Assembly (NCBI GenBank): GCA_963805855.1
Contig: CAWDVW010000002.1
Span: 96,001-160,000, forward strand
From: Candidatus Dadabacteria bacterium
Lineage (GTDB): Bacteria; Desulfobacterota_D; UBA1144; Nemesobacterales; CSP1-2
Length of the DNA: 64,000 nucleotides
Direction: 5' to 3'
The position numbers and the translations under genes are program-made. This document shows positions 17,976 through 22,642 of the stretch, piece after piece (position 1 is the stretch's first letter; each line of letters begins with the position of its first letter). The notes below the pieces were generated by a model that saw only the letters and a program-made list of their open reading frames with translations, made no database searches and had not been told where the DNA came from.

Positions 17976-19577
17976 ATGAAAGAAAGATTAGTGAAAATTT
18001 ATGATGTGACTCTAAGGGATGGTACGCAGGGAGAGAACATTTCATTTTCCATACACGACAAGATCCGGATAGCCTCCAAACTCGATGAGTTAGGAGTCCA
18101 TTTCATCGAAGGTGGTTGGCCGGGTTCGAACGAAAGGGACGAAGGCTTTTTTAAGCAGGCAAAAAAACTTCGACTCAGAAAATCGAAGATCACGGCGTTT
18201 GGTAGCACAAGGAGGGTAAATAAAAAACCAGGTGAAGATGAGAACATTCAAGCCTTACTCAAAGCTGAGACACCCGTAGTGACGATTGTGGGTAAGAGCT
18301 GGGATTTTCATGTGAAAGAGGCGTTGAGAATTACACTCAAAGAGAATTTGGATATAATTCATGACTCTATTCAGTACCTGAAAAAAAGAGTAGATGAAGT
18401 CTTCTTCGACGCAGAGCATTTTTTTGACGGGTATAAAAAGAATTCAAAATATGCTCTAGAAGCCATTGAGTCGGCTATAGACGCCGGGGCAGATGTTGTG
18501 GTTCTGTGTGATACAAACGGAGGAACACTTCCCTGGGAGATAGAATCAACCGTTAGGGTTGTGAATGCACAACTTCAAAATCCTCCTCTAGGCATACATA
18601 CACATAACGATGGTGAGTTAGGTGTTGCAAACACGCTCTACGCAGTTAGAGAAGGCGTTAATCAGGTTCAGGGCACTATAAATGGATATGGCGAGAGATG
18701 CGGCAACGCTAACCTATGTTCAATCATCCCGAACCTGAAGCTAAAGCTTGGCATAAAGTGCTTGGGCGACGACGAACTTAAGAAAGTTTACGAGGTATCA
18801 CACTTTATTCACGAACTTACGAATCTCCCCCCAATCAAACATCGTCCATTTGTCGGTGAAAGCGCCTTTGCTCACAAGGGAGGACTCCACGTCAGTGCAG
18901 TCATGAAAAGCGCAGAAACGTATGAGCATATAAACCCTGAGATTCTCGGCAACAGGAGGCGTGTGCTTGTCTCTGATCTTTCAGGTAGGAGCAATATAAT
19001 ATACAAGGCCAAAGAGCTTGGAATTGACTTAGACCCGGGTGATAAAGGTGTACACAAGATACTTTCCGAGCTGAAGAAGTTAGAAAATCAAGGATACGAA
19101 TTTGAGGGCGCGGATGCGTCTTTTGAATTGCTAATAAGGAAGACACTCGGTCAATACAGGAAACACTTTGAGCTCAATGGCGCCAGAATAATAGTAGAAA
19201 AGCACCGAGACGATGAGGAGCCAATCTCAGAGGCCACTGTGATGGTGCAGGTCGACGGAATAACCGAGCACACCGCAGCTATCGGGAACGGTCCTGTAAA
19301 TGCCCTCGATAACGCTCTTCGAAAAGCCCTTGAGAAGTTCTATCCCGTATTAAAGGATGTGAAACTGAAAGACTATCGCGTAAGAGTAGTTTCAAGCCAG
19401 AAAGGGACAGACGCCGTAGTAAGGGTCTTAATTGAATCCGGTGACGGAGAAAGCGATTGGAGCACAGTCGGTGTTTCAGAAAATATAGTTGAAGCAAGCT
19501 GGAAGGCCATGGTCGACAGCATCGATTATAAGCTGTTTAAGGAAGAGGCGAGAAAGACCAAAAAAGCCAGAGGGTGA
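17976..19577 (+). CDS. cimA: Citramalate synthase (LeuA/CimA family)
   Basis: [62 protein letters not shown]. Start at the second Met because the ORF-track start lies inside the heptamer repeat. Confidence 0.92.
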
Positions 19578-19749
19578 GAATTAATCACCATACTAGAACC
19601 CGCAGCGAATCATCAAATTATAAATAGACACATCCCTAAAAAATAAAATTACCTCTATCCACACTTCGGCTTGGCCCTTCGGTTTAAGTCAAGCGCAGGT
19701 TAAGCGTGATCGGATATTGATATTTAAAAATCACGAACATATATCAAAC

Positions 19750-19811
19750 CGTGCATCCTGAGCAGAGTCGAAGGATGTTATCCCTTTTATATTTTCACGC
19801 TTCGACAGGCT
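19750..19811. repeat. REP-like palindrome (left arm plus interrupted right arm) that is the IS target; remainder at 21234-21244
   Basis: Left arm CGTGCATCCTGAGCAGAGTCGAAG is an imperfect inverse of the rejoined right arm CTTCGACAGG-CT-CAGTGTGAACG. Confidence 0.85.
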
Positions 19812-19920
19812 GTTATGTAAAAAGTCAAGGGTTATGTTAGGGAAAACTTTAACTTTGAACAAACGAATCCCTTCGTGCTTTTTTATGTAATGTATCTCAT
19901 GTGTAAATAAATCCTATCTT

Positions 19921-20061
19921 GAATCAATCTGTTATAAACAGTCAGCTGCCTCTTTGCAGTGCTGCATTAAATTCATTAAACCACTCAAACCTGTGGCCGC
20001 ACTCTCAGTAAAACATTTTCTTTGCAGCCAGTCGATAGCGGTCCACACTTTATTGTTTGAG
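19921..20061 (-). ncRNA. Predicted bridge/seek RNA of the IS110-family element
   Basis: Two stem-loops on the minus strand. Loop 1 carries TCGACTGGCT and ACTGAG, matching the target flanks. Loop 2 carries ATAACAG, complementary to the element end. Transcript ends are unknown. Confidence 0.82.
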
Positions 20062-20089
20062 ATTTCATAGATCCAGTCCCTATTACTTA

Positions 20090-21154
20090 TCAAATCAATC
20101 CATAAGCATAACTCTCCTTATTCTTCCACACGTATCTTATCCTGTTCAATAACTTCTTGGCGATCCGAACTATCGCTTTCTGCTTGGTCATCCGCCTGAT
20201 CAATTGACTAAACACATGCCCCAAAGCCGGATCTTCTCGTATCGCTACCCACGCTGCCTCTATCAGTAAGTACCGTAAATACCGGTTACGCCGAAAGCTG
20301 AGCCCCAGAGTGCTCTCCCTCTCCCCAGAACTACTTACCGATGGCACTAACCCCGCATAACTAGCAAGATCGTCTATACTCCTGAACCGACTCATATCCA
20401 TCAGTTCCCCATATAATGTCATCGCTGTTACAAAACCAACCCCTGGCACACTACGCAGATTCTTTACCTCTTCCCCAAACCCGTATTCCCGATAATACTT
20501 CCGCACCAACTTCACTACCTCTGCTAAACGCCTTCGATGACTTTCTAGCTCCTCGAGACATAGCCTAAGATAATCCCTACCCATCCCGTATGAAAACTCT
20601 AATGTCTTTAACCACCTTATAAATCCCCCAGACCAGTGACCAATCTCATCATGGCGCGGTATGACATAACCATAGAATGCTAAATACCCCTTGATCCGAT
20701 TCTTAAGCCGAGTTTGCGACTGTACCACCTTAAATCTGAGCCTGCACAATGATCGCAATTGTTGGTGAAATTCATCCGGTACATATATCCCTCTCAATGA
20801 CCCATTCTCTAGCTCTCGTGCCAGCTTACGGCTATCCACCTTGTCGGTCTTTGTCGATTTCTCCTTCTGGGTACTAGGCACATCTGCCGGATTGATTACT
20901 ATATTGTTAAACCCGTACCTCTTTAACTCCCGATCAATCCAGTACCCACAGAATCCTGCTTCATACACACTGTGATAGTTTCCTCCCGGATAACGCTTGT
21001 GCATATATCCGTACAGTTGCTCCGGTGATGGATCCATGGAGAAAGTCTTTAACTCCATGCCGTTAGTCCTGACTGTTACTTTCCAGCTCTTCTTATGCAC
21101 ATCTATGCCTAGAAAAAAATCTTGATTTGTGTAATCTATACTTTGTCTATTCAT
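20090..21154 (-). CDS. IS110-family DEDD recombinase/transposase
   Basis: GIDVHK (D), VYEAG (E), KTDKVDSRKLA (D,D) RuvC-like tetrad; SVPGVG HhH; YAGLVPSVSSSG with Tnp-domain serine; 354 aa, intact. Confidence 0.96.
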   Translation of the reverse strand: MNRQSIDYTNQDFFLGIDVHKKSWKVTVRTNGMELKTFSMDPSPEQLYGYMHKRYPGGNYHSVYEAGFCGYWIDRELKRYGFNNIVINPADVPSTQKEKSTKTDKVDSRKLARELENGSLRGIYVPDEFHQQLRSLCRLRFKVVQSQTRLKNRIKGYLAFYGYVIPRHDEIGHWSGGFIRWLKTLEFSYGMGRDYLRLCLEELESHRRRLAEVVKLVRKYYREYGFGEEVKNLRSVPGVGFVTAMTLYGELMDMSRFRSIDDLASYAGLVPSVSSSGERESTLGLSFRRNRYLRYLLIEAAWVAIREDPALGHVFSQLIRRMTKQKAIVRIAKKLLNRIRYVWKNKESYAYGLI

Positions 21155-21268
21155 TACGGTTCCCTCCTTATTTTTTTCCTTTTAATTATAAGAAGGGAAC
21201 CGTTGTACCTAACCCCTTTTTAACATAATTCCTCAGTGTGAACGACTTCATTTGTTGCATTATTAATT

Positions 21269-21294
21269 GATAGGCAGGGTTTTCTAACCCCGCT
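21269..21294. repeat. Short REP-like hairpin, copy 1
   Basis: GATAGGCAGGGTTTTCTAACCCCGCT, 24/26 identical to 55769-55794. Confidence 0.8.
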
Positions 21295-21370
21295 CCCAGC
21301 CTGACCCGCAGTTCGGCGAGAATCGTATTTTGATGCCTGATCGGGGAACAGGCACTACACTCACTTAAAT

Positions 21371-22642
21371 TTATGAATTTTCGTCTTTTTCAGTTTTAAT
21401 TAGTTTCAATGCTTCATCACCCTCTTCGGGGGCAATCGGCAATCCTTGTTTGATTCTGGCATTTTCTATCTTTTCCAATGGGCTTTCGAGCTGCCTCCTT
21501 CGAGTGGTCATAAGGTTCTCGTATTCCTTCAAAGCATCCCCGATCCTCTTACCAAGCATTTCTAGTCGATAAAGGAATTCATCCCACTGTTTCTTGAAAC
21601 GCCCAAATAGGGATAGCAATTCCGCAGATGTTCTCTCAAGGGCAAAATTATCAACAGCCTGTCTGATGACTGCTAAAACAGTGATAAAATTAATCGGGGA
21701 GCAGAGTACGACCTTATTTCTTAAAGCGTTATCAAAAATCGTGCTATCCTGCTCATGGATAAAACCATAGATCTGCTCATTGGGAATAAATAGGATCACG
21801 CAGTCGACAGTGTTTTGTTCAGGATCAATATACTCGCGGGTTGTCACTTCTTTGATCCGCGCCCTCACATCTCTTAAGAAATCATTTCTGAATTTTAATC
21901 TTTCAGTGTCTGACGCTGCTTCTAAAAACTTCATGTAGTTATCTAAAGGGAATTTAACATCCATGTTAAGTCTCAGGCCCCTGGGCAAAAGGAAGGTGAA
22001 ATCCGGTCTCGATCCCCCACCCTCTATGGACTTTTGCTTTAAATAATTAACATTCTCGATAAAGCCCGCTAAATTTAACACGTCCTCCGCCATACGCTCA
22101 CCCCATTGGCCCCTTGCCTTTGAACTGGCAAGCGCCTCACGAATTGTACTTGTCACTTTCATTAATGAAGTAGTCTGCTCACTTGCCGTTTTTAGCTGAC
22201 TGGCGAGCTCACCAAACTTCTCAACCCGATCCTTCTCGAGATCCTTCATCAGCGTCGAAACATTTTCAAGCTCCTTTGACATACGTTGCAATTGCTGATC
22301 GATCAATCCTTTCTTCGCATCCAATTCCTTAACAGTCGTCTCGCGTTCAGGCTCCAATGTCGCCTTGGCTAATTTCAGGAATTCTTCGGTCGATTTCGAC
22401 AATGCATCTAAAGATAAACTGCCAAAACTAGCCTTTATATTTTCGATAACAGTATTCAAGTTCTCCCGTCGTTGACCCTCACTTTCAGCATACAGCTCTT
22501 CCGCGAGTTCCTTTCCAGTCTTAGCCTGTATCACCCTCAGAATTAAGGCTAGGCCAAAACCTATAAGAATGCCGACTACAACCGCAATAAGGATTGGTAG
22601 CCAATTAATAAGATCTCCAGATAACTTAGCTACATCTAGCAT
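21371..22642 (-). CDS. rmuC: DNA recombination protein RmuC
   Basis: N-terminal TM helix, coiled coil, RGQWGE, RPD..LP...MDVKFP, LFIPNE. Confidence 0.93.
   Translation of the reverse strand: MLDVAKLSGDLINWLPILIAVVVGILIGFGLALILRVIQAKTGKELAEELYAESEGQRRENLNTVIENIKASFGSLSLDALSKSTEEFLKLAKATLEPERETTVKELDAKKGLIDQQLQRMSKELENVSTLMKDLEKDRVEKFGELASQLKTASEQTTSLMKVTSTIREALASSKARGQWGERMAEDVLNLAGFIENVNYLKQKSIEGGGSRPDFTFLLPRGLRLNMDVKFPLDNYMKFLEAASDTERLKFRNDFLRDVRARIKEVTTREYIDPEQNTVDCVILFIPNEQIYGFIHEQDSTIFDNALRNKVVLCSPINFITVLAVIRQAVDNFALERTSAELLSLFGRFKKQWDEFLYRLEMLGKRIGDALKEYENLMTTRRRQLESPLEKIENARIKQGLPIAPEEGDEALKLIKTEKDENS

Follow-up and report, generated by a model that had tools for sequence, protein, structure and literature searches.

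On the minus strand of the window, by which we mean the whole stretch of 64,000 nucleotides that was analysed, a recombinase gene is followed by a non-coding region in which two stem-loops are predicted, and gene and region together make up most of an insertion sequence that is flanked on both sides by host-derived target bases (Table 1). The recombinase carries both domains expected of an IS110-family protein (PF01548 DEDD_Tnp_IS110, 1.1e-16; PF02371 Transposase_20, 1.2e-22) and scores 216.8 bits, against a cutoff of 140, with the NCBIfam model NF033542, "IS110 family RNA-guided transposase". Residues D18, E65, D104, D107 and G277 are invariant in 7/7 aligned homologues, while residue 276 is S in six of them and T in one. 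The protein thus has the catalytic D-E-D-D and S-G residues of the IS110 family, their correspondence to the catalytic residues D11, E60, D102, D105 and S241 of IS621 (PMC11208158) being one of motif only. Its GIDV, EA and KTDxVD motifs align with the solved ISCro4 chain 9t56. Judged from the sequence, the recombinase ORF is intact, with its DEDD and S-G residues in place.

Several features place the element with the IS1111 type, for which subterminal inverted repeats and a GL-P----S(t)G motif are described as family traits (PMC11187229). The C-terminal motif reads GLVPSVSSSG in the window protein, and the pattern G[LF].P....[ST]G is kept in 7/7 homologues, with F at position 2 in L022. Between the subterminal repeats and the element ends lie 1 and 3 nt plus the core, and the repeat length of 11 nt falls within the 7-17 bp of the IS1111 type. 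The left end (77 nt, 21231-21155) is much shorter than the right end (278 nt, 20089-19812), so that the longer non-coding region lies downstream of the gene, as in other IS1111 elements.

Table 1. Coordinates of the insertion sequence, its parts and its flanking target in the window
Feature	Coordinates	Strand	Basis or remark
IS1111-type insertion sequence	19810..21231	-	1422 bp including one AG core copy
Left target half and core (ACTG + AG), host-derived	21232..21237	-	identical at 3/3 copies; joined to right half in empty site
Left subterminal inverted repeat (TTATGTTAAAA)	21218..21228	.	repeat search, 11 nt, 91% complementary; conserved in homologues
Leader hairpin, 16 bp, enclosing the recombinase ribosome-binding site	21156..21203	-	repeat search; also visible in the Rfam-scan alignment
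Recombinase gene, 354 aa, DEDD RuvC-like and Tnp domains	20090..21154	-	Pfam PF01548 and PF02371; NCBIfam NF033542
Predicted target-binding stem-loop of the bridge/seek RNA	19984..20061	-	fold, covariance model match, stem covariation
Outer stem, CTCAAAC with GTTTGAG	20061-20055 / 19990-19984	-	
Second stem, TGTGGACCGC with GCGGCCACA	20047-20038 / 20000-19992	-	
Putative 5' target guide UCGACUGGCU (DNA TCGACTGGCT)	20026..20035	-	complementary to core and right flank, gene-sense strand
Capping hairpin of the target loop, GCA / UGU, 3 bp, 7-nt loop	20013..20025	-	covariation (two helices) and fold
Putative 3' target guide ACUGAG (DNA ACTGAG)	20004..20009	-	equals left flank and core; complementary to the other strand
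Predicted donor-binding stem-loop	19921..19980	-	fold with second symmetric internal loop; conserved homologue motif
Putative 5' donor guide strand UGAAUUUAA	19967..19975	-	partly complementary to left-end start
Putative 3' donor guide strand UAUAACAG	19929..19936	-	ATAACAG identical to right end and core
TTGACT in the right end	19823..19828	-	read from sequence
Right subterminal inverted repeat (TTTTTACATAA)	19813..19823	.	pairs with left repeat, 11 nt, 91% complementary; conserved in homologues
Core AG	19811-19810	-	counted inside the element
Right target half CCTGTCGA (CCAGTCGA at copy 3)	19802..19809	-	copy junctions and empty site

Three copies and an empty site define the element and its 2-nt core

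The genome (3.11 Mb in 9 contigs) holds three copies of the element, which are ~100% identical over about 1.44 kb (BLAST) and differ by a few ungapped single bases, for example in the 5' leader; BLAST of the whole genome found no similar sequences beyond these three. The copies sit at different loci and the recombinase ORF is open in each. In gene orientation, copy 1 is entered from TTCAC-ACTGAG into GAATTATG and left from ACATAACAG into CCTGTCGAAGCG. Copy 2 is entered from TCTGT-ACTGAG and left into CCTGTCGAACTG, and copy 3 is entered from CCTGC-ACTGAG and left into CCAGTCGAAGTG. The pattern at 3/3 copies is ACTGAG, element, CC(T/A)GTCGA. On the plus strand of the window the junctions read TCGACAGGCT (19802-19811) and CTCAGT (21232-21237), and the right junction of the third copy is AGCCAGTCGA.

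Outside the core all copies have 6 + 8 nt in common, which could have been element sequence, a reading ruled out by two observations. The A/T difference between copies marks CCWGTCGA as flank, not element. In addition, the element is missing from two genomes of the same genus, G005 and G006, and in G005 the orthologous site, downstream of an rmuC-like gene, is uninterrupted (CACACTGAGCCTGTCGAAG; longer reading GATCACACTGAGCCTGTCGAAGTG). From the uninterrupted site it follows that the target is ACTG-AG-CC(A/T)GTCGA, that the element spans 21231-19810 and that AG is a 2-nt core, of which the empty target has one copy and the occupied target one at each junction. The bounds given in Table 1 are therefore those of the block common to the three genomic copies minus the target-derived bases, with the empty G005 site as reference. 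In the DNA run X1 neither the circle junction nor the empty-site joint was found, and contigs break at the element ends. Near-identical copies at different loci, their open ORFs, the lack of the element in G005 and G006 and the empty site together indicate that the element has probably been active recently.

A stem-loop behind the gene matches both strands of the target

The predicted target-binding stem-loop begins 28 nt past the recombinase stop codon. Folded alone, its 78 nt form a stem, an internal loop and a small hairpin at -22.2 kcal/mol (z = -2.42; 6/200 shuffles as stable). Reverse-complemented, the 5' loop strand reads AGCCAGTCGA, which agrees with the right junction at 10/10 positions for copy 3 and at 9/10 for copies 1 and 2. 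The 3' loop strand, ACTGAG, agrees at 6/6 positions with all three left junctions and at 7/7 with that of copy 2. The two loop strands thus match the two strands of the target and overlap at the core, which is the arrangement expected of a bridge/seek RNA. To gauge chance, the 278-nt non-coding region was subjected to dinucleotide shuffling, and a guide pair was counted when a 10-mer with at most one mismatch from TCGACAGGCT was followed 8-46 nt later by ACTGAG; this occurred in 1/20000 shuffles. When the whole 306-nt 3' region is folded at once, it is no more stable than shuffles (z = +0.44), and the fold signal emerges only with the two stem-loops folded as units.

A first-pass annotation made from the letters of this stretch had proposed the stems, the internal loop and the guide positions of 20061-19984, and the minus-strand sequence bears them out base for base. 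The 9/10 match that it gave for the 5' loop strand against core and flank is confirmed and rises to 10/10 at the third copy. Its reading of ACTGAG (20009-20004) as the reverse complement of CTCAGT is likewise correct, and the same bases form the left junction at 3/3 copies.

A second loop corresponds to the joined element ends

Folding of 19985-19915 yields a second symmetric internal loop, although the donor stem-loop alone gives a weak signal (z = -1.07), and the 147 nt of 20061-19915 form two stem-loops side by side (-37.3 kcal/mol, z = -1.55). All relatives keep the motif TGCRGC-hairpin-GACYGY-NATAACAG-RTTGATT, i.e. GACYGY-N-ATAACAG, in which ATAACAG equals the last right-end bases plus the core (ACATAAC-AG) and matches at 7/7 positions in the window. 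The 9 nt before TGCRGC were compared with the reverse complement of the core plus the start of the left end, and the mean match was 6.36/9 for cognate against 4.29/9 for non-cognate pairs (n = 22; 0/5000 permutations); for the three variable donor-guide bases the values were 2.73/3 and 0.99/3 (n = 22; 0/5000 permutations). The 5' donor guide of the window itself matches its own left end at 4/9 positions (AATT), the weakest of the 22. A second loop that matches the joined ends is thus evident from family-wide covariation, with a partial match in the window. Given this donor-guide loop, the predicted RNA, about 147 nt long, would be a complete bridge/seek RNA with two loops, in which the stem-loop 20061-19984 is the target-binding half.

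Both loops also show a weaker correspondence at the positions next to the core. In the target loop, the dinucleotide just 3' of the core-pairing positions is the same as the one that opens the element in 20/50 loci, and one of its two bases agrees in 19 more (mean match 1.18 vs 0.93 shuffled; 0/5000). In the donor loop, the first base of the extension equals the first base of the right flank in 14/20 loci, where 28% would be expected (0/5000). These handshake-like extensions find no match in either loop of the window's own element.

Stems are conserved by compensatory changes

The layout of the 3' non-coding region is the same in all full-length homologues inspected: one half of a variable stem comes first, then ACCGY, ~11 variable nt and TGC with a hairpin; behind these lie another variable stretch, three bases, GCGGC and the half that completes the stem. 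The seed alignment consists of 29 homologues chosen by a motif that fixes ACCGY, TGC and GCGG, and those invariant columns therefore carry no weight. Across these 29 homologues and 16 proposed pairs, standard pairs occupy 87.7% of cells against 77.3% in shuffled alignments (0/500 reach this value), and 60 cells are changed on both sides against 21.8 in shuffles (0/500). Sliding the pairing partners as a control lowers the share of standard pairs from 87.7% to 31-55%. Each of the five variable pairs of the outer helix shows 4-18 double changes. G-U pairs are frequent at three positions (UG in 21/29, GU in 18/29 and UG in 7/29), which makes the fold specific to the gene-sense strand.

The covariance model R1, for which this seed alignment was the input, returned 71 matches in 96 sources, all on the gene strand and directly 3' of the recombinase gene; 42 of the 71 lie outside the seed, a count that includes the three copies of the window's own element. 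The window gave a single match (19984-20054, 53.4 bits, E 1.8e-12). Over the whole genome R1 found only the three element-borne copies and no stand-alone copies of the RNA, and a scan of 19500-21500 on both strands with Rfam produced chance-level matches only, with nothing above E = 5.

Some homologues depart from the common form. In L071, L080, L095, L083, L087, L078, L068, L057 and L086 a much longer insert replaces the capping hairpin of the target loop (matches of 110-123 nt), and all members of this subgroup apparently have target sites ending in GTCAG. In L015 (1501-2573) the recombinase gene is frameshifted into two ORFs of 113 and 207 aa, while its target stem-loop still scores 70.3 bits and its right flank matches at 10/10 positions; this locus was excluded from the protein alignment and retained for the RNA.

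Guides follow the flanks across homologous elements

Merging identical guide pairs reduced the 71 R1 matches to 64. Element ends were placed by the subterminal repeat motif, and loci with a contig end or without the repeat motif were dropped, which left 46 right junctions and 48 left junctions. The longest identical run between the reverse complement of the 5' guide and its own right junction averages 7.28, against 3.02 for non-cognate pairs (n = 46; 0/5000 permutations), and that between the 3' guide and its own left junction averages 5.19 against 3.07 (n = 48; 0/5000 permutations), counts that overstate independence since the homologues are related to one another. For the 5' guide, 37/46 loci lie above the 95th percentile of non-cognate pairs. 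The misses are right-junction runs of 3-4 in 7/46 loci and left-junction runs of 2-3 in 11/48. Targets visibly differ between elements. The first-pass annotation had named covariation of guides with flanks as a check on its proposal; the check is passed at both junctions, and the split-guide geometry that it described, with overlap at the 2-nt core, holds in the window and in 46-48 homologues.

There are variations on this rule as well. In L062, L011, L063, L077 and others the 5' guide and the conserved TGC are offset by one base, and the T of TGC then has as its partner the base to the left of the core instead of a core base. L093, L064, L088 and L089 have AA at the right junction and AG at the left. 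A further locus, L021 (G007:C68, about 997-1140), encodes a protein 84% identical to that of the window and has guides changed at two positions (TCGACTTGCT and CCTGAG), which would fit another variant of the host repeat, CCTGAG followed by CAAGTCGA. We considered L021 as a natural "reprogrammed" case and rejected it: the donor loop is missing and the right flank mismatches the guide (3-nt run). From its sequence, L021 is probably a decayed copy.

Target sites lie in a dispersed host repeat and the closest matches are occupied

The repeat around copy 1 is palindromic, CCGTTCAC-ACTGAGC-nn-GTCGAAG ... CTTCGAC-nnn-GCTCAGGATGAACGG, with the insertion in its left arm, and copies 2 and 3 are inserted in related repeat units. 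At all three copies the guides match the target within these dispersed palindromic units, in agreement with the earlier description of the loop as programmed for the host repeat. In the element's own genome CTGAG-N4-TCGA is found 80 times, where base composition would predict 19.3. When the assembly was searched for unoccupied sites resembling the 14-mer ACTGAGCCAGTCGA, none was found with 0 or 1 mismatch, 25 were found with 2 mismatches and 191 with 3. Every site within one mismatch of the 14-mer predicted from the guides is thus already taken by the three copies.

The longer motif ACTGAG-N4-TCGAAG is common to at least three repeat types of this genome: the palindromic CCGTTCAC...GATGAACGG, GCTTCGC-GAGCCTG-ACTGAG, and CCTGAGTAGTGAGC...CTATCGAAGGGTG. 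A separate dispersed repeat, GGGGTTAGAAAACCCTGCCTATC, lies in the left flank (window about 21266-21295). It recurs many times across several same-family genomes, in stretches of 24-30 nt with 90-100% identity, and also adjoins the empty site in G005.

The occupation of all closely matching targets bears on whether the element can still move. It might be a fossil, with an RNA and a protein that look intact and a donor guide and handshake positions that have drifted too far for mobility; the 5' donor guide is the weakest of 22 (4/9), neither handshake-like position matches, and the assembly offers no free target with fewer than 2 mismatches. We regard this as unlikely. Three copies that are ~100% identical over about 1.44 kb, sit at different loci and all have an open ORF speak against long immobility, as do the lack of the element in G005 and G006 and the empty site in G005. 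Partial handshake pairing is, moreover, also described for wild-type IS621 (PMC11208158).

Expression signals and the nature of the guide

Four of the 24 sequencing runs listed derive from RNA, and their word shares are small. In three of these metatranscriptomes contigs cover only 20211-20811, inside the recombinase gene, at a depth of 2-3; DNA carry-over in those libraries is possible. The sequence scan found no terminator-like sites on the minus strand, and no promoter-like or terminator-like site brackets the RNA region; the promoter scan gave one promoter-like site, in the left flank (21286-21259), which is below the shuffle mean of 3.9. In the circularised element, TTGACT (19828-19823) would stand 17 nt from TATGTT of the left end (21227-21222), and the two hexamers across the circle junction make a possible junction promoter. 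Upstream of the gene, the leader hairpin pairs ACGGTTCCCTTCTTAT with ATAAGGAGGGAACCGT around the ribosome-binding site directly before the ATG, and is probably a translational brake on the transposase. A similar leader hairpin (GCATCCTTTCTG ... CAGTAAAGGATGC) is seen in the homologues L009, L011, L012 and L015.

Since the contigs from RNA runs cover the gene only, and a strand-specific fold with G-T pairs is possible in single-stranded DNA too, the guide could in principle act as DNA, in the manner of the folded transposon ends of the IS200/IS605 type. What makes this very improbable is the behaviour of relatives, whose non-coding region is reported to yield an RNA, 82-96 nt long, that is required for transposition and is recovered together with the purified transposase (PMC11187229), together with the RNA present in the IS621 synaptic complex structures (PMC11208158) and a protein score well above the cutoff of the RNA-guided family model. 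Least credible of all is that the stem-loop is a mere terminator or mRNA-stabilising hairpin whose likeness to the flanks arose by chance, as its start 28 nt after the stop codon and the failure of the whole 3' region to fold better than shuffles might suggest: no U-run follows the stem-loop, the scan finds no minus-strand terminator-like site, the guide pair turns up in just 1/20000 shuffles, and across 46-48 homologues compensatory changes maintain the stems even as the loop strands vary in step with the flanks.

Discussion

The locus is very probably an IS1111-type element of the IS110 family with a predicted two-loop bridge RNA of ~147 nt at its 3' end that would direct the recombinase to the target and to the joined element ends. 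By analogy with characterised relatives, the RNA would be produced from the element, bound by the protein and used to guide recombination, and its guides may be reprogrammable, in line with the natural correlation of guides with flanks. In the mechanism that we propose, the long 3' non-coding end would encode the bridge RNA (seekRNA) as two stem-loops with one internal loop each. One strand of the target loop would pair with the gene-sense DNA to the right of the 2-nt core (AG; CT on the plus strand) and the other strand with the complementary DNA on the left side of the core, so that both guides together would specify the 14-bp ACTG-AG-CCAGTCGA in one arm of the dispersed host repeat. With its two strands, the donor loop would address the joined ends of the excised, circular element in the same way. 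A tetramer of the recombinase would then hold both DNAs on the RNA and exchange strands at the core, and the element would be inserted without target duplication.

The gene is found in 3/120 genomes of the window's own phylum. In a scan of one genome per species, 11 loci encode full-length relatives of 44-58% protein identity, in assemblies of Ignavibacteria, Bacteroidota and Calditrichota type, and a metagenome scan found at least 565 stretches encoding a relative, the best 80 of 565 being 46-64% identical. On plasmids the best relatives are less than 40% identical (unnamed cyanobacterial plasmid copies, 36-39%). The best named IS1111-family relatives on plasmids are IS5075/IS4321, with 29% identity over 78% of the length (E = 5e-16), a clearly better protein match than that to IS621. 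The solved IS621 and ISCro4 chains are marginal matches, that to IS621 with E = 4.6e-3 and over the C-terminal part only.

Among characterised elements, the closest by description are ISEc11, ISPa11, ISKpn4 and ISPst6 (Siddiquee et al. 2024, PMC11187229). The window protein is distant from the named IS1111-family relatives. These elements are described with a DEDD transposase bearing the GL-P----S(t)G motif, subterminal repeats, a downstream non-coding region, a stem-loop RNA of about 80-96 nt and an element-specific target. The order of the matches agrees too: in the IS1111-family seekRNA the top-strand match lies 5' of the bottom-strand match, the two overlap in the target, and the RNA lies downstream of the gene (PMC11187229). 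The window element has an evident donor-matching loop, whereas the short seekRNA of those four elements is described by its target matches (PMC11187229).

Compared with IS621 (Durrant et al. 2024, PMC11208160; Hiraizumi et al. 2024, PMC11208158), the predicted RNA has the same plan of two internal loops with two opposite-strand guides each. The core is CT on the strand opposite to the gene here and CT in IS621 (PMC11208160; PMC11208158), and the two bases by the core-pairing positions covary in this family with the non-cognate DNA, which resembles the handshake guides described for IS621 (PMC11208158). The two differ in that the predicted window RNA occupies the right end, 3' of the gene, while the IS621 RNA is in the left end, 5' of it (PMC11208160; PMC11208158), and in the 11-nt subterminal repeats that the window element carries. 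For IS1111 elements bridge RNAs are indeed predicted in the right end (RE), with the donor-binding bases of many orthologues in a multi-loop (Durrant et al., PMC11208160); the donor site of the window is, in contrast, a simple internal loop. Like the REP-targeting ISPpu9 (PMC12288879), the window element is inserted into a dispersed palindromic host repeat and has its predicted RNA gene downstream of the transposase gene. Host lineage and repeat are different, and the Ssr9 RNA of ISPpu9 is described with extra copies (PMC12288879), of which the window RNA has none.

The first-pass annotation placed the RNA downstream of the gene, as in IS1111-type elements, which agrees with PMC11187229 and PMC11208160. 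It also called the element complete, and the intact 354-aa ORF, the catalytic residues, the inverted repeats, the donor loop, the three copies and the empty site uphold this. Its suggestion that the recombinase is probably uncharacterised stands in part: there is no Rfam family for the RNA and plasmid relatives are below 40% identity, but the protein family already has a name in NCBIfam, "IS110 family RNA-guided transposase". The element is a clean example of the RNA-guided bridge recombinases described in 2024 and no new kind of system or mechanism. We suggest, tentatively and with slightly more doubt than conviction, that it belongs to a large unnamed environmental IS1111-type clade whose bridge RNA joins the downstream position with IS621-like simple loops and handshake-like positions. 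Relatives from this clade may already be in the table of predicted bridge RNAs per ISfinder element of Durrant et al.

If this reading is correct, the element would be a compact system (354 aa and about 147 nt) that is readable from sequence, possibly orthogonal to IS621 and capable of recognising a 14-bp target. The element is an added candidate for tool development. The model R1 and the guide-to-flank rule can be used to annotate such elements and their targets in metagenomes. Every part of this system can be read from sequence, from the target with its core and the guides for target and donor to the element ends, three recent insertions and an empty site; the same rules in about 70 relatives support the view that the bridge/seek RNA mechanism applies generally within a branch of the family that has been little sampled.
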